Positions 6,838 to 24,426 of a stretch of DNA of 32,000 nt are shown one piece after another (within the stretch, counting starts at the first letter, position 1; each line of letters opens with the position of its first letter). The stretch is taken from positions 300,001 to 332,000 of the forward strand of contig OW818675.1 of NCBI GenBank assembly GCA_942493095.1, given 5' to 3'. Made by a program: the position numbers and the translations under genes. The notes beneath the pieces were generated by a model, which had not been told where the DNA came from, did not search any database, and saw nothing but the letters and a program-made list of their open reading frames with translations. The stretch is from Candidatus Electronema halotolerans (GTDB lineage Bacteria; Desulfobacterota; Desulfobulbia; Desulfobulbales; Desulfobulbaceae).

Positions 6838-7403
6838 CGTACTTTTCTCATCACACAGAAGTTGTTCATGCCAAGCTGAAAGGAACGATGCTTGACGATT
6901 GCAAATCTGCCGTCAGCCGCAGCAAGCTGACGCAGTTCCGGCAGGTCATAGTATTTTTTATGATCCGCTATCTCGGCCTGGCTGACAAGGCCCAGTTTGA
7001 AGGCGAGAAACTCCAGCACAGGTTTGGCCCGTTTTCCCGGCACAGTCAGAACTAATTTGCCGTCCTCCTGCAAGACTCGGCCTATTTCCGCCAGCATTTC
7101 CTGCGGTTTTTCCAAGTGCTCAAGCACGGCCAGCATGGTCACGGCATGGAACGAGTGGTCGGCAAACGGCAGCGAGGCATCCAGCCGGGCTTGGATAGTG
7201 CGGATTTTACCAAAGGAGGCGGCAGGGACTTTGAAGTCGATCCCTGTGCCTTGGGCAATATGCGGGGCAATGGTTGACAAAAACTTATGATTGAAGCCGC
7301 AGCCGATATCTAACAGATTGCAGTCTGGAATTGCTCTGATCTCATCCAGCACCCTGCCGATTCGCATCTTTCTGAGAATCGGCTCCATGATCGCCTCGTG
7401 CAT
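6834..7403 (-). CDS. Class I SAM-dependent methyltransferase
   Basis: LLDIGCGFN (motif I) and [10 protein letters not shown]. The start is uncertain (7403, 7388 or 7367). All candidates overlap the 3' end of the upstream membrane-protein gene. Confidence 0.85.
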
Positions 7404-9123
7404 TGCTCATCATCTCCCAGACCGGCGGCACAAGCAGAACCAGCAGCAGTGGCAGCACCTGCACGGTCAGCCGGTTCCAAGCCGTGCCGATCTGCCAGTA
7501 TATTTCGTTGCTGCTGCAAAGAATAATGGCAAGATAACCGGCCAAGAGAGCAATTGGCAAGAACAAAGGCCGCAGATCATCTTTGCGCCTGAACAGTATT
7601 GCGACCAGAGCAAAGATGATGCCAAAGCCGACAAGGTTCCATTGCCGGACATCCTTCCACATTACGTAGATCGCCTTGCCTGCTGGCAGCAGCCGTCCAG
7701 CGGCATGACGCAGGCTGGCGGCTTGCCAATGCAGGCCCGCAGCAGCTTGGGAGCTGAGATCAAGATGCAGCCGTGACCACCAGAACCAGAAGGCGGTGCA
7801 GCCTGCAAAGGTGAGCAGATAGAGCACTGCCGCCTTCAGCTGCCCGCTACCAAGGAGCATCAAGCCAAGCAGCAGGGCAAAGAGCAGACCTTCGTTTTTT
7901 GTCAACGCTGCTCCGGCGGCGAACAAGGCGGCAAGCACCGCATCAGCTAATCTGCTGTCGCTTTGCCAGCGCAGGAATGCGGATAAGCCGCAGGTCATCA
8001 TCAGCCAGAGTGGGGCCTCGGCATAGCCCCATGAGGCGACCAGCGGCACATTGGGAACAGAGACAAACAAGGCGGCGGCAAAAAATCCGGCCAGCTGGCT
8101 GCCGCTCTGCCGCCTGACCGCAGCCAGCATCTCCCAAGCGCAGAGCAGGAGAAAGACTGCGCCCCAGCCCTTGCTCCAGCATTCCTCCCAGCCGCCAGCC
8201 AGCCAGCCGGACAAAGCCCAGATTGTCGGCCAGAGCAGCGGATAATCCGGGTGGCCGAACCGGGTCACATCTTTGAGCGGGCCGCTGCCCAAGGCCAGCA
8301 CTTTGGCCTTGCTGCCCCACATTGCCCACGCATCCCAGTCATCCGGGACCACAACCACAGCCATGAGGAAGCTCCACAGCACTGCCAGCAGAATGATCAG
8401 GCCCAGCAGCCCGGCCAAGAGCCGTTCTCGTCCGGGCATGGCCGCAGGAGCGGGACGAGCCGGAGGAGACAGTCTGCTGACAAGCGCATTGCCAAGCAGC
8501 ATGGCCCAGCCGACAAGTGCGAGAATGATTGCCCCGCCAAAGGCTGGGGCGGCGGAAAGAAAAAACAAACGGCTCGGCAGTGCCAAAAGTGTGATGAAAA
8601 GGCAGGCCAAGGCCAGGCATTCCGGCCAAGTGGCCCGTCCGCGCCACATTTTGCGGAGCAAGGCGGCCCAGCCGAGCAGCACGGCAAAGGACAAAATCAG
8701 CCCCTTGGGACTGCTGCGTTCTTCCGACAGGGAAGCCGTGTCAGGCTGTCCGGCGGGCGGGCCGCTGACAGTCAGAGTGCCGCCTTTGACATCAAGGATG
8801 TGCTCGGCTTTTTTGACCGGAATGCGGGGAATCAGCAGATACTGGATGTAGGAGAGCGCGTTTGCGTCGCCGCGTGCCTTATAGCGGAGAGCAGCAGGCC
8901 ACTGCGCTGCCAGCTCTGCTGTCTTATCTGCCAAGACCGGAGGCAGACCGGCCCGCTCAAAGACAATCCGCCGCTGTTCGGCAGGACTTTTGCCAAAATA
9001 GAGCACCCGTTCGCGCTGCTGCCAGAGCTGATACATGCACGCCAAGGCGGCAAAGGTCACAAGCAGCCAGCAGCCGATAGACACTTTGAGCAGCATGTTT
9101 TTGGCCTTGCCGCTCATAAGCAC
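7342..9123 (-). CDS. Polytopic membrane protein, GT-C/ArnT-like suspected
   Basis: 593 aa with more than 10 TM segments. Acidic periplasmic motif VVPDDWDAWAMWGSKAKV. First gene of a minus-strand operon with the methyltransferase and GT2 genes. Confidence 0.7.
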   Translation of the reverse strand: MLMSGKAKNMLLKVSIGCWLLVTFAALACMYQLWQQRERVLYFGKSPAEQRRIVFERAGLPPVLADKTAELAAQWPAALRYKARGDANALSYIQYLLIPRIPVKKAEHILDVKGGTLTVSGPPAGQPDTASLSEERSSPKGLILSFAVLLGWAALLRKMWRGRATWPECLALACLFITLLALPSRLFFLSAAPAFGGAIILALVGWAMLLGNALVSRLSPPARPAPAAMPGRERLLAGLLGLIILLAVLWSFLMAVVVVPDDWDAWAMWGSKAKVLALGSGPLKDVTRFGHPDYPLLWPTIWALSGWLAGGWEECWSKGWGAVFLLLCAWEMLAAVRRQSGSQLAGFFAAALFVSVPNVPLVASWGYAEAPLWLMMTCGLSAFLRWQSDSRLADAVLAALFAAGAALTKNEGLLFALLLGLMLLGSGQLKAAVLYLLTFAGCTAFWFWWSRLHLDLSSQAAAGLHWQAASLRHAAGRLLPAGKAIYVMWKDVRQWNLVGFGIIFALVAILFRRKDDLRPLFLPIALLAGYLAIILCSSNEIYWQIGTAWNRLTVQVLPLLLVLLVPPVWEMMSNARGDHGADSQKDANRQGAG

Positions 9124-9500
9124 TTCCTTTCAGGTCGTGGAGTCAGGCAGCTCAAGGTTGTTTGCTCTCCGCAGCAAGGCCCTGCTCGACGTTTTTTCAA
9201 AATCAGAAATTCTTTTGATGTCTCCTGTTGCCAAAGACAGGGCGGCCCGCCAATAACAATGTCAGCCTTTGGATAAACAGTATCAACAGTCAGGGTTTTT
9301 TGAACACATCTGCCGAGCAAGTTGCGGTTGTATGTTTCTGCTGCGTATTCCTCCATTTCATAGCCAATGGTTTTAAATCCATTAGCTTCAAAACCAAGTG
9401 ACAAACCGCCGCACCCTGCAAAAAGATCAATGACTGTTTTGTTGAGCGCAACATCAATCCAAGGAGTTAATTCTTTCTTTATTTTTTCCCAGTATTCCAT
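9114..9500 (-). pseudogene. Truncated DNA (cytosine-5) methyltransferase: N-terminal fragment only
   Basis: DLFAGCGGLSLGF (motif I, SAM binding) and IVIGGPPC (motif IV). The sequence after PPC (LWQQETSKEF...) loses all similarity to the expected QxFS and ENV motifs. Only about 87 aa are methyltransferase-like, against the 300+ aa expected. Confidence 0.65.
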
Positions 9501-9557: not shown

Positions 9558-11462
9558 TCAGGCCTTGAGATCAATCTTGACGATCTTGTCGCCCGGCTGG
9601 AGGCTCTGGCCAACCTTGACGCTGACGGTTGCGACCACGCCCGCCGCTTCAGCAGTGATCGGGGTCTGCATCTTCATGGCCTCAATCACGACAAGCTGAT
9701 CTCCGGCAGCCACCTCCTGCCCCGGCTTGACATTGACCTCGCTGACGCTGGCGGCAAAAGGAGCGCGCATGTCGCCGGATGCAGCCAGTTCGGCAATTTC
9801 TTCCTTGGACAGCTTGGCCGCTGCCGGAGCCGCGCCTACAGGCTGTTCCGGCTCAAACACATAAATCCGCTCGTGGTGATCCACATTGAGATAGGCATTC
9901 GTATGGCCATCCTCAGTCTTCTGCACCGGCCCGACCTCAATCAGATGCTCCTTGCCAAAGTGGTCGCGGAAGGTGAGGGTCTCTCCAAGCGGGAAGCCGC
10001 CCAGCCGCAGGAAGATCGACGGCGGCAGCACATAAGACTTGCCGAACTCGGCCTCAAACTTGTAGAAGTTGACTGCGTCGTTGGGATGCTGGAGATAGAC
10101 CACAAGCTGCTGCTCGGTCGGCTCATAGCCGAGCCGCTCGGCCAAGGTCTGCCGCTCCTGCTCAATGTCCATGTCGGCAATGGCCTCAGCCCCGCCCTGC
10201 TCCTCCACGATCTTCTGCCAATCCTCGCCAAAGACCTTCTCATAAATCCAGTCCGCAGGCTTGGAGAACGGGAACGGCCCGTACTTGCCGAGGAGCAGGT
10301 TCTTCAGGTCGCCGGAGGGCGATTCATAGCGGCCATGCTGGACGTTGGAAACCGCTGTGGTCCACAAAATCTGCGAGCCGGGCGTGACACTCCAGAAGTT
10401 GCCCAGCTCCTCCTGCACTTTGGGCAGCTCCTTGTGGAGGATGTCCGGCATCTTATCCAAAAAACCGCCTTTGACCGCCTGCTCCAAGCTCGAACCCATC
10501 GCCCCGCCCGGCAGCTTGTGAATCTGCACCGTGGGCTGGAAGCCCTTGATCTGCGACTCGAACTGGGCATAGTGCTGCCGCTGGTCGCGCAGGACTTCGG
10601 ACGTGGCGATCACCGCCTCCTCGTCAATGCCGACTGCTGTCTTGCCGTGCGCCTTGAGGGCCTGAATCACGGTCAGAATGGGCGGCGGGCCATAGAAGCC
10701 GGTAAAGGCATGATCAGAAGCATCAACAATCTTGGCTCCGTTGAGCACGGCCTCAGTGATCCGGCCCACGTCGTTGCCGTCGGTGTTGTGGCCATGATAG
10801 TGAATGATCAGATCAGGATAGCTCTGCTTGATCGCGTCAACTAACTCGCCGATGCGGCGCGGGGTGCCAAGGCCGCCGTGGTTCTTGATGCAGAGGGTGA
10901 CATCCTCGCCAGTCACGTCTAACAGCTCGCGCACCTTGGCCACGTAATAGGCATTGGTGTGCTCCGGCCCGGTGGAGAAGCAGATGCACGGCTCGTTCAG
11001 CTTGCCCGCCTTGCCCACCTCCTCGAACACGGCCTGCATGTTCGGCACATGGTTGAGAAAGTCAAAGGTGCGCCAGACATCCACGTACTTGGCAAACTCC
11101 CGCACCGTGAAGCGGATCACGTTCTGCGGATAGGGCCGGTAGCCGAACAGGTTCACGCCCCGGCAGAGGGTCTGGAACATGGTCTTGGGCATGGCCTCGC
11201 GCAGCAGCTCCAGCTTGAGGAAGGGATCCACCTGCTTGCGGAGAATATCAACATGCACCGAGGCCCCGCCGGTGATCTCCAGCGAAAAATAGCCTGCCGC
11301 CTCCCGCGTCGGCGCGGCCAACAGATCAGTGTGGAGCAGGATGCGGTTCTTGTAGTCCGACTGGGACATGTCCCGCGTCGTGTTGGTGATGTAGTAGCCG
11401 TCGGCGGCGCGCAAGGCGGCCAGCATCGAGGCGGTGTCCATGTCTTGGGTGATTCGTGTCAT
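9558..11462 (-). CDS. pycB: Carboxyltransferase plus biotin-carrier subunit of a two-subunit pyruvate carboxylase type enzyme (alternatives: oxaloacetate decarboxylase alpha, 2-oxoglutarate carboxylase large subunit)
   Basis: 634 aa. TIM-barrel carboxyltransferase region (HYHGHNTDGNDVG). C-terminal biotinyl domain with IEAMKMQT. Same strand as a biotin carboxylase gene. Confidence 0.85.
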   Translation of the reverse strand: MTRITQDMDTASMLAALRAADGYYITNTTRDMSQSDYKNRILLHTDLLAAPTREAAGYFSLEITGGASVHVDILRKQVDPFLKLELLREAMPKTMFQTLCRGVNLFGYRPYPQNVIRFTVREFAKYVDVWRTFDFLNHVPNMQAVFEEVGKAGKLNEPCICFSTGPEHTNAYYVAKVRELLDVTGEDVTLCIKNHGGLGTPRRIGELVDAIKQSYPDLIIHYHGHNTDGNDVGRITEAVLNGAKIVDASDHAFTGFYGPPPILTVIQALKAHGKTAVGIDEEAVIATSEVLRDQRQHYAQFESQIKGFQPTVQIHKLPGGAMGSSLEQAVKGGFLDKMPDILHKELPKVQEELGNFWSVTPGSQILWTTAVSNVQHGRYESPSGDLKNLLLGKYGPFPFSKPADWIYEKVFGEDWQKIVEEQGGAEAIADMDIEQERQTLAERLGYEPTEQQLVVYLQHPNDAVNFYKFEAEFGKSYVLPPSIFLRLGGFPLGETLTFRDHFGKEHLIEVGPVQKTEDGHTNAYLNVDHHERIYVFEPEQPVGAAPAAAKLSKEEIAELAASGDMRAPFAASVSEVNVKPGQEVAAGDQLVVIEAMKMQTPITAEAAGVVATVSVKVGQSLQPGDKIVKIDLKA

Positions 11463-11534
11463 GACCTGTGTCCGTGATGATGTTGTTTCGTGCGTTGGAT
11501 GGCCGCTGGGGCAGGGGCGGTTCGTGAACCGCCC

Positions 11535-11894
11535 TTACGGATTCTCTCTTTTGCTGTCCTGACGACGCATCAGGGCTTCAACTTCCTGCTGAAGGATCGG
11601 CAAATGCCTGACAATGACTCCCCAGATGATCGCGTCATCGATTTTGTCGTAGCCGTGAATCACCCGGTTTCTCATGGAGATGATCTGCATCTTATGCGAG
11701 ATGACAAGATCAGGCGCAATTTTGTCTATCCTGTTCATCGCTTCGCCGATGATTTCAAACTCCCGCTCCACAGCCCGGCGCAGCATTTTGTTGCCCGCGT
11801 AGCAGGTGAAATCCCTCTTCTCGCCAAGGTAACTGAAGATGGAAGCGGCGGCCTCACGAATGTCGTAGAGATATTTCCTGACCAGCTCATCCAT
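11535..11894 (-). CDS. hepT: HepT-type HEPN toxin (DUF86) of an MNT/HepT toxin-antitoxin pair
   Basis: RNRVIHGY matches the R-x4-H-x-Y HEPN motif. 8-nt overlap with the upstream nucleotidyltransferase gene. Confidence 0.85.
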   Translation of the reverse strand: MDELVRKYLYDIREAAASIFSYLGEKRDFTCYAGNKMLRRAVEREFEIIGEAMNRIDKIAPDLVISHKMQIISMRNRVIHGYDKIDDAIIWGVIVRHLPILQQEVEALMRRQDSKRENP

Positions 11895-12189
11895 ACAGCT
11901 TCACTTTGCTTCGGTTGACCGCTTCAATGAAGAAGGGATTGGCAAGGGAATTCTCAGTGAGCAGATCAACCTTGCGCTGAAAGAGCTGCTCCAATTCCTC
12001 GGCAAGGCGGAAAAAGTTGTCGGCATAGTCGCCAAAGTCCATCGGCTGAAAGGCGATCAGCAGATCAATATCACTGGCTGGGCTGAACTGTTCTGTGCAG
12101 ACCGAGCCGAACGCGGACAGCGATCTGACCTTTCTGCTGGCGCACAAGGCTTTGATCTTCTCCATGTTGTCGCTGATGATCCGGTTCAT
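11887..12189 (-). CDS. mntA: MNT-type minimal nucleotidyltransferase antitoxin
   Basis: FGSVCTEQFSPASDIDLLIAF (the GS...DxD nucleotidyltransferase motif). 100 aa. Paired with HepT. Confidence 0.85.
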   Translation of the reverse strand: MNRIISDNMEKIKALCASRKVRSLSAFGSVCTEQFSPASDIDLLIAFQPMDFGDYADNFFRLAEELEQLFQRKVDLLTENSLANPFFIEAVNRSKVKLYG

Positions 12190-12202
12190 AATTTCTTCCG
12201 CA

Positions 12203-12523
12203 TCACGTCGCCCTGCCTTCAGCAGAAAGGGCGCGGGCTGACGCGGTCAGCGGAAAAATGCCTGAAAGATTCACCCGGCTGCGGGCCTGCCAGAGGTCAT
12301 AGCTGTCCTGCATCAGCAGCCAGCTTTCCGGGCTGCGGCCAAGACATTTGGACAGCCGCAGGGCCATTTCCGGGCTGACCGCGCTCTTGCCTTTGATCAG
12401 CCGGGCAAAGGTTGACGGCGCGATGCCGAGACGGAGCGCAAGGCTCCTTGGAGAAAGCTCCAGCGGCTCAAGATACACTTCGCGGATGAATTCGCCCGGA
12501 TGGGGCGGATTGTGCATGGCCAT
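12203..12523 (-). CDS. higA: HigA antitoxin (XRE-family HTH)
   Basis: HPGEFIREVYLEPLELSPRSLALRLGIAPSTFARLIKGKSAVSPEMALRLSKCLG is a typical HigA/VapI HTH. 1-nt overlap with higB. Confidence 0.9.
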   Translation of the reverse strand: MAMHNPPHPGEFIREVYLEPLELSPRSLALRLGIAPSTFARLIKGKSAVSPEMALRLSKCLGRSPESWLLMQDSYDLWQARSRVNLSGIFPLTASARALSAEGRAT

Positions 12524-12801
12524 CAGTGATAATCCTCATAATCAACGAGATAGGCGTTGCCGTCCTCAAATTTGAAGACAAGCCGCCAGTTTTTATTCAC
12601 ATTGACCGCCCATAATCCCTGCCGGTCTCCTTTCAGGCTGTGCAGCCGCCAGCCCGGAGTGTCCATGTCCTCGATGCAGAATGCCGTGTCAAGAGCGATC
12701 AGCCGGAGCCGCAGCTTCTGCTTGTGTTCCGGCTGAATCCCTGTCACCTTGCCGGTTTCAAAAAATTTTTGCAGCCCCTTATGCCTGAACGACTTGATCA
12801 T
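12523..12801 (-). CDS. higB: HigB toxin (RelE/ParE superfamily, plasmid maintenance system killer type)
   Basis: MIKSFRHKGLQKFFETG...LHSLKGDRQGLWAVNVNKNWRLVFKFEDGNAYLVDYEDYH is the typical HigB sequence pattern. Toxin-first gene order. Confidence 0.9.
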   Translation of the reverse strand: MIKSFRHKGLQKFFETGKVTGIQPEHKQKLRLRLIALDTAFCIEDMDTPGWRLHSLKGDRQGLWAVNVNKNWRLVFKFEDGNAYLVDYEDYH

Positions 12802-12846
12802 GAGCAGATTATATCCGATTACGGACGTGATGCGCTGCTAAGGGAA

Positions 12847-13140
12847 GCTGATCTGGAACAGATCAGCTTCAATCTGTCCCGGATCAGCCTTGATCCGCTG
12901 CTCGCAAAACTTGAGGCAAAGCAGATGTGAACTGAACTGCCTCGGATTGAACTTGATCTGTTGCAGATGAAGCTCTGTTTGGCTTGCCTCAAGCTCAATC
13001 CAGCTCAGATCAGGCGCTGTTTATCGCAGATGAAACCTGATTTACAGCACCTCAAACCTTATCTGTCTCAGATTACGCTCAATGCGTGCCAATGCAAGCC
13101 TGATCCAGCGCAGCTCAAGTCTGTTCCGCAGCCGCTTCAG
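12847..13140. repeat. 14 tandem degenerate 21-bp units; column consensus CTTGATCYG-NNN-CAGATCAAG (a 9-3-9 palindrome)
   Basis: Cutting 12847-13140 into 21-mers aligns every unit. C is at unit position 13 in 13 of 14 units, and T is at positions 6 and 17 in 12 of 14. Units 1 (12847-12867) and 6 (12952-12972) are perfect or near-perfect palindromes. 7 GATC sites in 294 bp. Confidence 0.8.
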
Positions 13141-14576
13141 GCCGCGTAGGCGTTGCCGCCCTTGCAGTGAATCTCGGCGATCAGCTTGGCCAGCTTGTTG
13201 ACCTCACTGGTCTCCTCCTCATAGTCAAGCAGCTGCGGGTGGGTTTCAAGAAAGGAGGTGTCAAACTGTCCAGCCTGAAAATCCGGGTCGTTGATCAGGT
13301 TCAGATAAAAGGGAATGGTGGTCTTGGGGCCGCTGATGACAAAATTGTTGAGGCTGCGGCGCAGGCGGTCAACCGTCTCATTCCATGACCAGCCGAACAC
13401 GGTCATCTTGACCAAGAGCGAGTCATAGACTTGAGGGATGACAAAACCCTGATAGCAGAAGCCGTCCAGCCGCACTCCGTAGCCGCCCGGCGAGCGATAG
13501 ACATGCACGGTCTTGCCGCCCTCTGGCATGAAGTTGTTTTTCGGGTCTTCGGCATTGATGCGCATCTCCACAGCATGGCCGCGCAGGAGCACCTCCTCCT
13601 GACTGATGGCCAAGTCCTTGCCCAAGGCCAGCTTGATCTGGGTGCGGACAATGTCAATGCCGGTGATCATCTCCGAAACCGTGTGCTCCACTTGCAGGCG
13701 GGTGTTGATCTCCATGAAGTAGAACTGGCCCTTGTCAAAGAGAAACTCAACTGTGCCCGCGTTGAAGTATTTGGCCGCCTTGGCCGCCCGGACAGCGGTC
13801 ATGCTCACCGCTTCCTGCTGCTCCGGCGTGAGCTGGAAGGCCGGGGCAATTTCCACCAGTTTCTGATTGCGGCGCTGAATGGAGCAGTCGCGGGTGCCGA
13901 GGTGGATGGTGTTGCCCTGCTTGTCAGCAATAATCTGCACCTCAACGTGCTTGGGATTGACCACCGCCTTTTCCAGATAAACAGAGTCGTCGCCAAACGC
14001 GGCCTTGGCCTCGGTGCGGGCAATGCTGTACTGCTCCTTGAGCTGGCTTTCCTGCTCAATCTTGCGGATGCCGCGCCCGCCGCCGCCTGCCGTGGCCTTG
14101 AGCATGACAGGATAGCCGTGCTCCCTGCCGAATGCCACCGCCTCCTGCAAGCCCTCGTTGCCAGCTTGCAGATTTTGCGTGCCAGGCACCATAGGAATGC
14201 CTGCCTCAGCCATGATCTTGCGGGCCATGACCTTGTTGCCCAAGTTGTCGATCACGTCCGAGGGCGGGCCGATGAAGATGATGCCCGCCTTTTCGCAGGC
14301 GCGGGCAAAGTCGGCGTTCTCGGCCAGGAAGCCGTAGCCCGGATGAATGGCCTTGGCCCCGCTTTTCTGGGCTGCGGCAATCACTTTGTCAATATTCAGA
14401 TAGTCGCAGCGCGGGCCGTGCCCTATCCAGACCGCCTCGTCCGCAGTGCGGATGTGCATGGAGTCCCGGTCAGGCGTTTCATAAATGGCGACAGCCTCGC
14501 AGTTCAGCTCCTGAATGGCCCGGATGATGCGGATGGCGATCTCACCCCGGTTGGCAACAAGTATTTTGGTCTTCAA
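13137..14576 (-). CDS. pycA: Biotin carboxylase subunit (ATP-grasp) of the two-subunit carboxylase
   Basis: KILVANRGEIAIRIIRA and KATAGGGGRGIRKI are biotin carboxylase motifs. TTG start at 14576, 8 nt after GGAAGG. Confidence 0.9.
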   Translation of the reverse strand: MKTKILVANRGEIAIRIIRAIQELNCEAVAIYETPDRDSMHIRTADEAVWIGHGPRCDYLNIDKVIAAAQKSGAKAIHPGYGFLAENADFARACEKAGIIFIGPPSDVIDNLGNKVMARKIMAEAGIPMVPGTQNLQAGNEGLQEAVAFGREHGYPVMLKATAGGGGRGIRKIEQESQLKEQYSIARTEAKAAFGDDSVYLEKAVVNPKHVEVQIIADKQGNTIHLGTRDCSIQRRNQKLVEIAPAFQLTPEQQEAVSMTAVRAAKAAKYFNAGTVEFLFDKGQFYFMEINTRLQVEHTVSEMITGIDIVRTQIKLALGKDLAISQEEVLLRGHAVEMRINAEDPKNNFMPEGGKTVHVYRSPGGYGVRLDGFCYQGFVIPQVYDSLLVKMTVFGWSWNETVDRLRRSLNNFVISGPKTTIPFYLNLINDPDFQAGQFDTSFLETHPQLLDYEEETSEVNKLAKLIAEIHCKGGNAYAA

Positions 14577-20268: not shown

Positions 20269-23200
20269 ATGCGTCTTTTTTCTATAATTCGCTCTGTTGC
20301 TGTTCGTTCGCTGCAATGTTTTGCCGTTCTGCTGCTGATTTTTTTCGTCAGTATAGCCGCGTTGTTCGGCACAGAAAGCGGTTTGCAACTAATCGTCCGC
20401 ACTGCTGACCAGCTTGCCGGGCCGTATTTTTCTGCCGAACAGGCGCAAGGTCGTCTGCTTGATAGCTGGCAGATCAGCAAGCTGCGGATTCAGATTAAAA
20501 ACGCGGTTGATATCAGCATAAATAAACTCGTATGGAGCTGGCAGCCAGCCGACTTGTTCCGCAGCAGAGAACTGCATGTCAGGCGGCTTGCTGCGCAGGG
20601 ACTGGCAATTCACATTCTCAAATCCGATAAAAAACACATTAAAGAACAGCTACATAAACAGGTCACGCTGCCGGAAATCCGTTTTCCGCTTGCTCTGCGC
20701 ATTGACAGGCTGCAAGTTGCGGAGAGCAAAATTGTCACGCCAGAAGGCAAGGATGCGCTCCTCATTCACGAGCTGCTGGCCCAAGCCGCTGTCCGCAATG
20801 ATCAAGTCGAAATCACTCAACTGAAAGCGGACACCTCGCAATTCGGCTGCGACCTGCACGGCAAGATTCGCTTCAGCGGCGCATGGCCGATGCAGGCGGA
20901 AGGCGGCTGGCAGGTGCCAGATCACGGCATCAACGAGCTGCGCGGCATGGTCAAGGTGCAGGGTGATTTTGACAAGGCCACTGTGAACGCGACAATGGTT
21001 TCTCCGGCGCAGGTGACGCTCAAAGGCGAAGCCACGGACATTCTCAACGAGCTGCACTGGCAGGCCGCCGCAAAAACTGGCCATTTCACGCTCCGCGACA
21101 TCAAGGTGAATGTGCCGGTGGACGGCAATCTCCGCATCATCTCGGCGGCTGGCACGGTCAAAAGTTATGGCGGGGTGCTGGCGGCAGATGTTCAGTATCA
21201 AGGCTATCCGCCCGTGCAGGCTGAAGCCAAGGTCGAGGCAACAGATTATTCCGGCCTGAAGATCGATTATCTCACCCTCCGCCACGAATTTGCCGAGCTG
21301 ACCCTACGCGGAGCCATGCGCTGGCAGGGCGGTTTTTCGTGGCAGGCCGAGCTGGCAGGCAAGGATATTGATCCTTCCCTGGCTGCTGCTGACTGGCCAG
21401 GGGCAATCAGCGGCACGCTGCGCAGCAATGGCTATTTGGCCGCAGGCCTGCAGAAGCTGGAAGTCAATTTGGACGGCATCAACGGCGAGCTGCGCGGTCA
21501 GCCGTTCCAGCTTGGCGGCAGGCTGGCTTTGGCTGACAAGAAATTGAAGATTGACGAACTGACCTTGAAGTCAGGGCCTGCTAATGCGCGGGTCAGCGGC
21601 ACCGCCGATGCGGCGCAAAACATCGATCTTGTGGTGCAGGCAGAAGTCAAGGATTTGGCTGCCTTTGTTCCAAACACAGGCGGTTCGGTCCGCTTGGAAG
21701 GCACGGCTGTCGGCGCGGCGGAAAATCCGGCTGTCAAGCTGACTCTCAACGGCTCGCAGCTTGCATGGCAGGAGCAGCGGCTTGCCAGCCTTGCGGTCAG
21801 CGCAGATGCTGCGCTCGACAAAAATAACAGCACCCTGCTCATCCATGATTTCCACGCTCTTGCCGATGGCAAAACGGTTCTTGATCTCAAGGGGCAGCTC
21901 GGCTGGAGCAACGGCCTGTCGTGGCAGGCTGAACTGAAGGCGGCAGAACTTGATCCCGGTCTGCTTGCCCCGGACTGGCCCGGCGCAATCAACGCCGAGC
22001 TGCGCAGCCAAGGCAGCAAGACTGCGGACAATCTGACTGCCGAAGTGCAGATTGACAGGCTGGCAGGCAAGCTGCGCGGCTTCCCGCTCAAGGGCAGCGG
22101 CACAGTCAAGCTGGCTGGCAAGGCTGTGGCTGTTGCTGATCTCCGCCTTCAGTCTGGCAGCACCTTTGTTCAAGCTGACGGCAGAGCGGATTTCAACAAG
22201 GAGCTGGCCTTGACTTTCAAAGCTGGGTCAGACGACCTGGCTAACCTTGTCCCGGACGCGGGCGGCAAATTCAGGGCTGAAGGCGAGATCAGCGGCAATC
22301 TCCAGCAGCCTAAGCTGCGCCTGCAAGCGAGCAGCTCTAAGCTGCGCTTTCAAGACTACAGCCTCAAAGATTTGCAGGCGGCAATCAAGGCGGATTTGTC
22401 CCCATCCGGGCAAGTGGATGGCGAAATCAACGCTGCTGGCATTCAAATTAAAGAAAAAAAAATTGACACAGCCCTTTTGCGGCTCAAGGGCGGCACGGAA
22501 CAGCACCAGCTTGAATTTACTGCGGCAAGCGATCTTGGCAAGCTCCGGCTGACAGCAGCAGGTGCTTGGCAGGAGCAGCGCTGGCAGGGCCAGCTCAAAG
22601 AACTTGCATTGAATAACAAGCAATTCGGCCAATGGAAGACGGAAAAAGCTGCGGATTTGACCTTGTCGGCTGATCATTGCGCCCTGTCTGATTTTGCCTT
22701 GAGGCAGGACAAGGTGCGGGCGGCAGTCAGCGGCCAATGGGAGAAAGCATCAGGCTGGAAGGCGCAGGCAACAATTGAGCACCTTGCCCTTGCTCTGGCA
22801 AAAAAATGGCAGCTACCTGTGCCGGAGAATTTCCCGGAAATGGCCGGAGAGTTGAACATTGCCGCAACAGCGCAGGGGCAGGGGGCAAAGCCGCAGCAGG
22901 CTGAACTGACTGTCGATTTGCCTAAATTTGCCTTGACCGCGCAAGATTACGAATCTGATGACGAAAACGGCACCACCACGTGGCAATGGCAGGGCAATCA
23001 GATCAAAGCCAATTTGCGGGATGATGTCCTGCATCTGACCGCCAAGAGCGAGTTTCAGGATCAAAGCACTGCCTTGCTGACCGCAGAGCTGCGCAACTGC
23101 GGCGATTTCACCCAGTTCGAGCAAATGCCGCTTTCTGGTCAGTTCACGGTGAAGGTTATGGATATTTCACCGATGACCCAGCTTTCCGGCTATGCAGTGC

Positions 23201-24426
23201 AGGGCCAAGGCGGTTTTGGCGGTGACATTGCTCTGCATGGCACGGCCCTGCATCCGAGAATGGACGGGGTGCTGATGCTGAAAAAAGACAGGAGCGGCAA
23301 GAGTGGAATTCATATTCCCGCCGCCGGAATCAACCTGCGGGACCTGCGGCTGGCAGTGGCAGGCGACGGCAGCCATAATCAGCTTGATCTGACTGCCCGC
23401 TCCGGCCAAGGCCAAATCCGGGCGCAGGGCACAATCAGCCGCAATCTCAAGCTGAAGGAGCCGCAGATTGAGGCTGAGTTCAGCATCACGGGCAAGGATT
23501 TTCAGGCCGCTGATCTGCCCGAATATCAGGTCAGCATCAGCCCTGATCTCCGGCTGCTCCACAGCGGCAAAGGCACTTCGCTCTTCGGCAAAATCCTTGT
23601 GCCAAAAGCGCGCATCGCCCCGCTTGGCTTCAGCGGGGCTGCCGCCGCATCCAAGGATGTGGTGGTGATTGACAGCGACACGCCGCTGCCCAAGCACAGC
23701 CTGCCCTTTTCCGCTGCGGTCACGCTGGAACTGGGCAAGGACGTTGCGGTGGATGCCTTTGGCACCAAAGGCTTTCTCGACGGCAGCCTGACAGTCAATG
23801 CCAAGGCGGCCCGGCCTGTGACCGCGCTGGGCAGCCTCTACCTCCGCGACACTTCTGTCGCCTTTGAAGGAGTCACACTGCAACTCAGCGAAGGCCGGAT
23901 TTTTTATCAGGGTGGCCCGATTGACAATCCCGGCTTGGACATCCGGGCCTCGCGGACGGTCAACAAGATCGAGGCAGGCATCCATCTCACTGGCAGCGCG
24001 GATGACATGAACATCAAGCTTTTTTCTGACACGCCGATGGAGGATTCAGCCATTCTCTCCTGGCTGCTCTCCGGGCAGAACGGAGTGTCGGCCAGCCGCA
24101 GCGGCGATGCCACCCTTTCTCCAGCAGCAGCAGCCCTGAGCAAGATCGGCGGCGGCGCGCTGCTCAAGTCAGTCAATCCGCTGCAAGTCCTTGACATGGA
24201 GGATTTTGTCGATGTCAGCATTGGCGGCGGCAAGGAGGCATCCGATGTTTCCTTGGTCATGAGCAAGGAAATCTACAAAGACCTCTACATCAGCTATGGC
24301 AAAGATTTGACCGGCGAAGGAGGCTCCTTCAGGGCAAGGTACGATCTTGGCCACGGCTTTTCCATTGAAAGCGAGACCAGCTCCAAAACGACGGGCGCAG
24401 ACCTGCTCTGGTCGCTGGAACGATAA
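20269..24426 (+). CDS. tamB: TamB-like translocation and assembly module inner-membrane subunit (DUF490 C-terminus)
   Basis: 1385 aa. N-terminal TM anchor, a long repetitive beta-rich body, and the C-terminal motif YISYGKDLTGEGGSFRARYDLGHGFSIESETSSKTTGADLLWSLER. Located downstream of tamA. Confidence 0.85.
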   Translation: MRLFSIIRSVAVRSLQCFAVLLLIFFVSIAALFGTESGLQLIVRTADQLAGPYFSAEQAQGRLLDSWQISKLRIQIKNAVDISINKLVWSWQPADLFRSRELHVRRLAAQGLAIHILKSDKKHIKEQLHKQVTLPEIRFPLALRIDRLQVAESKIVTPEGKDALLIHELLAQAAVRNDQVEITQLKADTSQFGCDLHGKIRFSGAWPMQAEGGWQVPDHGINELRGMVKVQGDFDKATVNATMVSPAQVTLKGEATDILNELHWQAAAKTGHFTLRDIKVNVPVDGNLRIISAAGTVKSYGGVLAADVQYQGYPPVQAEAKVEATDYSGLKIDYLTLRHEFAELTLRGAMRWQGGFSWQAELAGKDIDPSLAAADWPGAISGTLRSNGYLAAGLQKLEVNLDGINGELRGQPFQLGGRLALADKKLKIDELTLKSGPANARVSGTADAAQNIDLVVQAEVKDLAAFVPNTGGSVRLEGTAVGAAENPAVKLTLNGSQLAWQEQRLASLAVSADAALDKNNSTLLIHDFHALADGKTVLDLKGQLGWSNGLSWQAELKAAELDPGLLAPDWPGAINAELRSQGSKTADNLTAEVQIDRLAGKLRGFPLKGSGTVKLAGKAVAVADLRLQSGSTFVQADGRADFNKELALTFKAGSDDLANLVPDAGGKFRAEGEISGNLQQPKLRLQASSSKLRFQDYSLKDLQAAIKADLSPSGQVDGEINAAGIQIKEKKIDTALLRLKGGTEQHQLEFTAASDLGKLRLTAAGAWQEQRWQGQLKELALNNKQFGQWKTEKAADLTLSADHCALSDFALRQDKVRAAVSGQWEKASGWKAQATIEHLALALAKKWQLPVPENFPEMAGELNIAATAQGQGAKPQQAELTVDLPKFALTAQDYESDDENGTTTWQWQGNQIKANLRDDVLHLTAKSEFQDQSTALLTAELRNCGDFTQFEQMPLSGQFTVKVMDISPMTQLSGYAVQGQGGFGGDIALHGTALHPRMDGVLMLKKDRSGKSGIHIPAAGINLRDLRLAVAGDGSHNQLDLTARSGQGQIRAQGTISRNLKLKEPQIEAEFSITGKDFQAADLPEYQVSISPDLRLLHSGKGTSLFGKILVPKARIAPLGFSGAAAASKDVVVIDSDTPLPKHSLPFSAAVTLELGKDVAVDAFGTKGFLDGSLTVNAKAARPVTALGSLYLRDTSVAFEGVTLQLSEGRIFYQGGPIDNPGLDIRASRTVNKIEAGIHLTGSADDMNIKLFSDTPMEDSAILSWLLSGQNGVSASRSGDATLSPAAAALSKIGGGALLKSVNPLQVLDMEDFVDVSIGGGKEASDVSLVMSKEIYKDLYISYGKDLTGEGGSFRARYDLGHGFSIESETSSKTTGADLLWSLER

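Follow-up and report, generated by a model that had tools for sequence, protein, structure and literature searches.

A 32,000-nucleotide stretch of the Candidatus Electronema halotolerans genome (GenBank assembly GCA_942493095.1, contig OW818675.1, positions 300,001 to 332,000; hereafter the window) carries a short tandem array of 21-nucleotide (nt) units in the spacer between pycA and pycB. Two toxin-antitoxin (TA) cassettes, higBA and mnt/hepT, lie between the array and pycB (Table 1). The gene order, the coordinates and the position of a TATAAT hexamer around the array agree with an earlier note on this DNA, which had proposed several functions for the repeat. As judged by comparison with other loci, the array is older than the TA cassettes and is one of a family of arrays with strict 21-nt phasing that occur in many unrelated genomic settings.

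Direct cutting of positions 12847-13140 gives 14 consecutive 21-mers in register, with the TGA stop of pycA (13139-13137) falling within the first unit. The self-identity of the array is 0.487, 0.452 and 0.489 at lags 21, 42 and 63, respectively, as compared to a lag-21 mean of 0.250 (sd 0.028) in 2000 dinucleotide-preserving shuffles (z 8.6); the highest shuffle value over all lags was 0.39. The tandem organisation seen by the earlier note is therefore confirmed, and nowhere else in the window did we find a 21-nt periodicity close to that of the array. Minor self-identity peaks at lags 5, 10-11 and 16 are due to half-site symmetry. The extent of 14 units was real and one unit too short: alignment with orthologous arrays (L006, L011 and L094) revealed a fifteenth, more eroded unit at 12826-12846. 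Tandem Repeats Finder, which the note had suggested as a check, reported no row for the array because its units, 48% alike, are too degenerate, and an Rfam covariance-model search of the window gave no relevant match at E<=10. The column consensus of the units is CTTGATCTG-NNN-CAGATCAAG, with all nine arm positions complementary. A pattern search for CTTGATCTG-N3-CAGATCAAG found no further copies in the window or in 0.87 Mb of loci from relatives. One near-match inside pycA (around codon 313, conserved) was discarded, being accounted for by the coding sequence. By eye, the consensus fits none of the sigma-54, DnaA-box, Fur-box, CsrA (GGA), omega-heptad or LytTR-type sites.

The 9-3-9 palindrome holds at the level of the consensus only. 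Unit 1 pairs at 9 of 9 arm positions, unit 6 at 8 and unit 11 at 7, and the remaining units at 1-5. Within-unit Watson-Crick pairs number 57 out of 126, as compared to 63.5±4.5 when the 3' halves are swapped between units, so that there is no within-unit pairing excess. No per-unit hairpin covariation was detected either, including when G-U pairs, the other strand and the unit junctions were considered.

Orthologous loci were obtained by an exact look-up of the HigB protein, which gave ten contigs of the same species, and by a profile of the spurious peptide read from the array, which gave contigs with a pycA-array-pycB layout and no TA genes. In one of the latter, L164, an array 94.6% identical to that of the window is followed directly by the pycB leader, without higBA or mnt/hepT. 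L011 harbours about 13 units, then about 100 nt and the pycB ATG; the same layout is found in L094 (a 21.5-kb contig), and both lack TA genes. The natural downstream partner of the array in these alleles is pycB. Because the array is present in TA-less alleles, it is, on this comparison, older than the higBA and mnt/hepT cassettes, which were inserted past its last unit at a junction reading ...ATCACGTCCG on one side and TAATCGGATATAAT... on the other. Alleles with and without TA genes coexist at the species level. The TATAAT hexamer (12813-12808 on the minus strand, 6 nt before the higB ATG) is part of the inserted segment and lies in the cassette's own 24-nt upstream stretch; it reads TATACT in L006, and no good match to a -35 element was seen by eye.

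Table 1. Features of the pycA-pycB region, in window coordinates.
Feature	Position	Strand	Basis
pycA, biotin carboxylase subunit	13137..14576	-	Pfam Biotin_carb_N, CPSase_L_D2, Biotin_carb_C
Tandem array, 15 degenerate 21-nt units	12826..13140	.	Periodicity, orthologue alignment, family hidden Markov model
Later insertion (TATAAT junction, higB, higA, MNT, HepT), separate from the repeat element	11535..12825	-	Pfam, L164 comparison
higB	12523-12801	-	Pfam
higA	12203-12523	-	Pfam
MNT	11887-12189	-	Pfam
HepT	11535-11894	-	Pfam
Perfect hairpin GGGCGGTTCACGAACCGCCC, 3' of hepT	11515..11534	.	Sequence; shared with L014
pycB, carboxyltransferase and biotin carrier	9558..11462	-	Pfam PYC_OADA, Biotin_lipoyl

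Several other features of the region were observed. A transcript starting from the higB TATAAT (window 12801-12813) would have little or no leader. The presence of the TA cassettes is polymorphic, both being missing in L164 (same species level); Electronema sp. PJ (L018) has an MNT gene and a truncated HepT remnant at the cassette position, and HepT is called as 144 aa in L001 and 119 aa in the window. The hairpin downstream of hepT has an 8-bp stem, GGGCGGTTC(A/G)CGAACCGCCC, and lacks a T-run, so it is not a consensus terminator; it also occurs in L014 (7448-7465; Desulfobulbaceae metagenome-assembled genome UBA5173), where it sits directly 3' of pycA. Farther away, at 7342-9500, a 593-aa open reading frame (ORF) without Pfam match is overlapped at its end by a 128-aa ORF whose match to the C-5 cytosine DNA methylase profile covers no more than the first ~70 positions; a methylase gene may have been split or truncated here. 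At 22304-22354, within a 1385-aa ORF (20269-24426), there is a 27-nt repeat with 1.9 copies and 88% match.

The spacer comparison suggested by the earlier note was extended to relatives by a PycA search over 185,579 species genomes. The closest PycA proteins belong to Candidatus Electronema and other Desulfobulbaceae, with amino-acid identities of up to 90%. The pycA-pycB gap is shorter than 170 nt in 72 of 80 relatives, mostly 30-120 nt, without 21-nt periodicity, and the repeat of the window is absent from all of these 80 other Desulfobulbaceae. The operon therefore does not need the array, which entered the spacer in one Electronema-like lineage. Other elements occupy the same spacer or lie next to it. 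In E. nielsenii (L092 1700-1845) it contains an array of ~23-nt units (GTGACAC..GCTGTCAC) unrelated to the window repeat, in Electronema sp. PJ (L018 6297-6369) an array of 23-nt units (GTATGCGCCTCGGCATAC) followed by the MNT gene, and in L014-L016 a hairpin and extra genes; in L013 (9452-9545) a 23-nt array with the unit GAATGCATGCATT is located just after pycB. The ~23-nt units of L092, L018 and L013, all from Electronema genomes, contain palindromes and are unrelated to the window repeat. The pycA-pycB spacer thus seems to have taken up short repeats and cassettes repeatedly. In Electronema sp. PJ, two more 21-nt arrays in opposite orientations flank pycAB (L018 4313-4545 and 9787-10035). 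Their unit is approximately GCAGAACTCCTTTGCNGCTCG, with a Shine-Dalgarno-like AAAGGAG in each unit on one strand, and they probably represent a different family (E 0.15 with the profile described below).

The first arrays outside the pyc operon were found by peptide-profile searches: ~15 units of CAGATGAAGCTTGATTTGCCA upstream of a GH172 gene (L093), an array beside a PhdYeFM antitoxin gene (L095) and an array beside a gene for an fn3-like protein (L097). We derived a degenerate 27-nt pattern from these three loci, without using the window, and scanned the metagenome collection with it. This identified 66 loci, among them 37 true arrays of 4-23 units, on contigs of 38-65% GC. The family consensus is CAGATGAAGC[G/T]T[G/C]AT[A/T/C]TG-YCR, with which the unit consensus of the window agrees at 17 of 21 positions. 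Four subfamilies can be distinguished: a non-palindromic majority (..GCGTGATATG), a palindromic high-GC form (CAGATGAAG followed by CTTCATCTG), the L093/L095 form and the window form, which is written CAGATCAAG followed by CTTGATCTG-NNN in the family frame. The palindromic subfamilies differ symmetrically in both arms (ATG...CAT vs ATC...GAT). Arrays from outside Electronema then supplied 79 three-unit segments for an nhmmer profile, with which we searched the window together with 84 related loci (0.9 Mb). Only pycA-pycB arrays were matched, the next unrelated match having an E-value of 0.15. The best match in the window is 13052-13105 (E 2.7e-6), and matches span 12849-13123 on both strands. 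Since this profile was built without the window or its orthologues, it places the window array in the family independently.

Phasing is strict in this family, and orientation is strongly biased. All 130 core-motif spacings are multiples of 21, even when the search is extended 400 nt past the array limits. Among independent non-palindromic arrays that can be assigned to a strand, ~19 have a same-strand gene start at most 350 nt downstream, often at 3-60 nt, vs ~1 in the mirrored arrangement (binomial p 4e-5). Genes upstream of the arrays mostly share this strand as well, which makes many arrays intercistronic. In the window, the middle C in 7 of 14 plus-strand loops suggests that the family-forward strand is antisense to pycA and pycB, the unit itself being palindromic. 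Many arrays of the non-palindromic majority are bordered by a 5' module (GYGRCAAAGTARGCGTGAT) and a 3' module (CAGATTAAACGGGCAAAAAGGCGTATAAGTCGTTTATTTTAAGGGAGTTAGG) that contains a Shine-Dalgarno sequence; a second type of 3' tail includes a fragment of the fn3-like gene. This gene encodes a 202-aa protein with an N-terminal helical part and a weak fn3 match (MARFPITEAE...AVNKAGEG). It adjoins the array in 15 of 40 loci, and the protein or fragments of it are present in ~19. It often occurs as two paralogues flanking the array (L120 1772-3361, L157 1374-3109, L102 2142-3535 and others), in polysaccharide loci with Wzz, DUF3485, flippase and GT4 genes. Fragments of it travel with arrays to L121, L125 and L149.

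Other downstream neighbours encode a DNA methylase, HSDR_N, GmrSD_N and a DDE transposase (one array, in L101, abuts DDE_Tnp_1), and antitoxin genes are also among the contexts. From the sequence alone, we take further downstream genes to encode an HsdM-like methylase and a PHP-domain protein. Small ORFs that we presume, by eye, to be GIY-YIG-like are located directly upstream of the arrays at L098 (2016-2372), L109 (549-851), L163 (1061-1363) and L108 (5767-6024); these four arrays are followed by restriction/defence genes, and the L163 ORF has no Pfam match at E<=0.01. Each contig examined has a single copy; this holds for the 32-kb window, for the 20-kb L094 contig and for the metagenome contigs. 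An Rfam search of ten family loci returned only spurious miRNA-precursor matches far below the gathering score, and literature searches on the unit sequences, on 21-nt tandem repeats and on tandem repeats of cable bacteria turned up nothing relevant. Like the earlier note, we recognised no described repeat family; the family is apparently undescribed, though interspersed tandem-unit repeats are a known kind of element.

The window copy is old and eroded, its units being 48% alike as compared to 64-75% in younger arrays (L157, L093 and L097). In a unit-level alignment of the window with L011, L094 and L006, units are one-to-one orthologous and whole units have been gained or lost. The indels between orthologous arrays measure 21, 42 and 21 nt, with in addition one 20-nt unit; by this alignment, array length is altered by gain or loss of whole units. 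The divergence of the array between the window and L011, taken from the same alignment, is 0.25-0.26, vs 0.25-0.30 at 4-fold sites of pycA and pycB, indicating that the array substitutes at about the neutral rate. Between orthologues, substitution reaches 0.42 in the loop columns vs 0.15 in the GATCTG columns (CAGATC in the family-forward direction; Fisher p 0.004, for columns chosen after seeing the data). The slower core columns could reflect weak constraint or homogenisation among units.

We also considered the array as RNA. The 359-nt spacer RNA folds at -147 kcal/mol in the sense direction (z -5.0) and at -135 kcal/mol in the antisense direction (z -4.3), mostly as one long nested fold-back, as expected from the alternation of half-sites. 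The sense fold is better by 12 kcal/mol through G-U pairs. In contrast, the folding of the non-palindromic L157 array does not surpass that of shuffles (z -1.4 and +0.8), so RNA hairpins are not a family trait. The structured untranslated region envisaged by the earlier note may apply to the intercistronic spacer as a whole, which folds well on both strands, but hairpins are not kept in each unit. Scans for a terminator or a sigma-70 promoter consensus between pycA and higB found none, and the array is therefore probably transcribed with the operon.

Among known systems, plasmid iterons and centromeres (F sopC with 12 repeats of 43 bp, R1 parC, P1 incA/incC) are phased direct repeats to which one protein binds cooperatively. 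Some of these repeats contain an inverted repeat, their period is near multiples of the helical repeat, and they lie beside rep or par genes on replicons. Pfam searches identified no rep or par gene near the window array, its neighbours being pycA, the TA genes and pycB, and no AT-rich unwinding region was seen; the array lies in a chromosomal housekeeping operon and evolves at the neutral rate, with division/cell-wall and metabolic genes around pycA-array-pycB at orthologous loci. A plasmid iteron or partition centromere was rejected on these grounds. The repetitive extragenic palindromic (REP) and bacterial interspersed mosaic elements (BIME) of enterobacteria and pseudomonads are imperfect palindromic units of 20-40 nt clustered in the intercistronic spacers of operons, where they can stabilise upstream mRNA or attenuate downstream expression. 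REPs have alternating orientation, defined linkers and hundreds of copies, and are linked to RAYT transposases, whereas the units described here are strictly head-to-tail at 21 nt, have a low copy number, come without any RAYT seen, and are not palindromic in most of the family.

The closest likeness is to modular intergenic elements. BrickBuilt elements of Porphyromonas gingivalis have the structure leader-(23 nt)n-tail, are intergenic, carry IS5-like terminal inverted repeats, are present in 19 copies per genome and are restricted to P. gingivalis and P. gulae (PMC4596501). Like them, the 21-nt arrays consist of units of about two helical turns (23 nt in BrickBuilt, 21 nt in this family) joined head to tail without spacers, have a non-repetitive leader and tail in intact copies, are always intergenic, vary in unit number, and have no Rfam match or protein function. 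They differ by the lack of detected terminal inverted repeats or target-site duplications, by a single copy per 20-32 kb contig and by a distribution over contigs of 38-65% GC; the window copy has neither leader nor tail. The pneumococcal BOX element, boxA-(boxB)n-boxC, varies in boxB number and affects co-transcribed genes (PMC3049150). It is also modular, with a tandem internal unit whose number varies between strains, it is located in transcribed intergenic regions, and it is predicted to act on co-transcribed genes via RNA structure. However, boxB is 45 nt long, the whole element folds tightly with paired ends, and BOX occurs in more than 100 copies per genome in a few streptococci only, whereas the main subfamily here has no significant fold.

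We consider it on balance probable that the window array is an old, decayed copy of a modular, minisatellite-type intergenic repeat element similar to BOX or BrickBuilt. Such an element may have spread by horizontal transfer or by some mobilising activity, and its unit number would expand and contract by replication slippage or unequal recombination. In the pycA-(TA)-pycB message the array would be a passenger, and its only likely local effect would be physical: the alternating half-sites could fold the RNA into a long imperfect duplex, which might be a processing site or an exonuclease barrier between cistrons, as for REP/BIME and BOX. The original role of the family may have been that of an orientation-dependent phased cis-element upstream of genes.

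Several observations weigh against this interpretation. We identified neither terminal inverted repeats nor a target-site duplication, and no cognate transposase. When the array ends were compared with array-less spacers, no distinct repeat or duplication emerged, the palindromic units making the ends trivially inverted; the family end modules are absent from the arrays of the window, L011, L094 and L164. The array is therefore not a proven MITE (miniature inverted-repeat transposable element). No further copies were found in the window, the L094 contig or 0.87 Mb of other Desulfobulbaceae loci, so these sequences give no sign of the many copies per genome that are typical of MITE, REP and BOX. 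Transcription of the array is deduced from the sequence only. Persistence of the unit sequence across contigs of 38-65% GC hints at function rather than junk, and sequence-specific function is also hinted at by the orientation bias (~19 vs ~1), by the exact spacing (130 of 130) and by the slower core columns (0.15 vs 0.42, chosen post hoc). Strict phasing, orientation bias and conservation across base compositions therefore keep two functional alternatives alive.

One of these, which we regard as unlikely, is a phased array of DNA-binding sites. Each 21-bp unit would represent two helical turns with two GAT-containing half-sites ~10.5 bp apart, and would be bound on a single helix face by a protein that is dimeric or arranged head-to-tail; the resulting nucleoprotein filament would control the downstream gene or mark the locus, as in centromere, iteron or operator arrays. 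This fits the exact phasing of all 130 motif intervals, the conservation across contigs of very different GC, the symmetric arm changes in palindromic subfamilies, the better conservation of core than of loop columns between orthologues, and the non-palindromic subfamily without RNA structure signal. However, an adjacent DNA-binding gene is not a consistent feature (the fn3-like protein is the most frequent neighbour), no rep or par genes lie nearby, the window copy has diverged overall at the neutral rate, and a symmetric operator would not require a strong orientation bias. The other, to which we give slightly less credence, is an RNA-level cis-element acting in leaders or between cistrons, either through single-stranded motifs (CAGAUGAAG...) recognised by an RNA-binding protein or small RNA, or as a processing or stability element; here it would set the pycA:pycB expression ratio of the flanking cistrons. 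Many arrays do have same-strand genes on both sides, with the next start codon 3-60 nt downstream, the 3' end module of the main subfamily carries a Shine-Dalgarno sequence, the orientation bias is significant (p 4e-5), and the window array folds well (-147 kcal/mol, z -5.0), better in the sense direction by 12 kcal/mol via G-U pairs. These points are opposed by the lack of covariation, the shuffle-like folding of L157, the window loop composition, which places the family-forward strand antisense to pycA, the absence of the array from most pycAB operons, and the strict phasing, which is unexpected for RNA sites. It is also conceivable, though we doubt it, that the window array is a decaying outlier from a cross-taxon, undescribed class of strictly 21-bp-phased, orientation-dependent cis-elements whose native role is that of a phased platform for a conserved DNA- or RNA-binding factor. 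Such elements would natively lie upstream of restriction/defence genes and, in polysaccharide loci, of the 202-aa fn3-like gene; the gene downstream would be controlled or mobilised through the platform, and the end modules would supply a ribosome-binding site.

The remaining explanations are far less credible. An operator array through which HigA (as proposed by the earlier note) or the MNT antitoxin controls the adjacent TA operon is suggested by the position of the array next to higB and by its 9-3-9 inverted repeat consensus, a type favoured by helix-turn-helix dimers. The 95%-identical array directly upstream of pycB in L164, the arrays of L011 and L094 without any TA genes, the family members beside unrelated genes elsewhere, and the separate 24-nt upstream segment with TATAAT in the cassette make it extremely improbable. 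Nor is the array an iteron-like relic of the DNA that delivered the TA genes, since the TA insertion came later and sits downstream of the last unit. A cluster of GATC sites serving Dam methylation and a SeqA-like protein is just as improbable. The count of 7 GATC in the 294-bp array was correct and speaks for it, with a Poisson p of 0.0013 at the window-wide rate of 5.4 per kb, at which 1.6 rather than about 1 are expected; however, several other 294-nt stretches of the window hold 6. Furthermore, only 7 of 28 possible consensus GATC sites survive, they are not preferentially conserved, and the equivalent positions in most family members are GATG/CATC, the family consensus being GATG. The excess is a by-product of the repeat consensus and the cluster is not exceptional. 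Finally, the array might be what is left of a decayed gene encoding an (LDLxQIK)n heptad-repeat protein, since its period equals 7 codons and gene callers have turned such arrays into 'hypothetical proteins' of 57-229 aa. Both strands read as heptads because the consensus holds no stop codon in frame 0 of either. Against a gene, unit variation shows no third-position bias, the heptad frame of the window array contains one stop on the plus strand and two on the minus strand, and every frame has stops. One 20-nt unit in L006 breaks any frame. Among 38 family arrays no frame is consistently open (the best in 17 of 38, mostly the shortest), in-frame TAG is frequent, and no Pfam domain was detected in the called ORFs. 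A coding origin is thus very improbable, and the view of the earlier note that the repeat is a DNA- or RNA-level element rather than a gene is upheld.

These results undo a tempting but mistaken association of the repeat with HigBA, and date the order of events, the repeat coming first and the TA cassettes later, with the two states still segregating within one population. They also uncover a repeat family that goes unnoticed by standard tools, since neither Tandem Repeats Finder nor Rfam reports it and gene callers yield hypothetical proteins. The family is set apart from species-restricted BOX, REP and MITE elements by its occurrence in sediment bacteria of very different base composition, its exact period of two helical turns, its strong orientation preference upstream of genes, and its frequent polysaccharide and defence neighbours. 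The window locus itself is ordinary and the family is more noteworthy. Should there be a binding factor, the arrays would constitute a new signal for regulation or mobilisation; otherwise, they would usefully mark insertion hotspots and be a source of spurious ORFs in metagenome protein catalogues.

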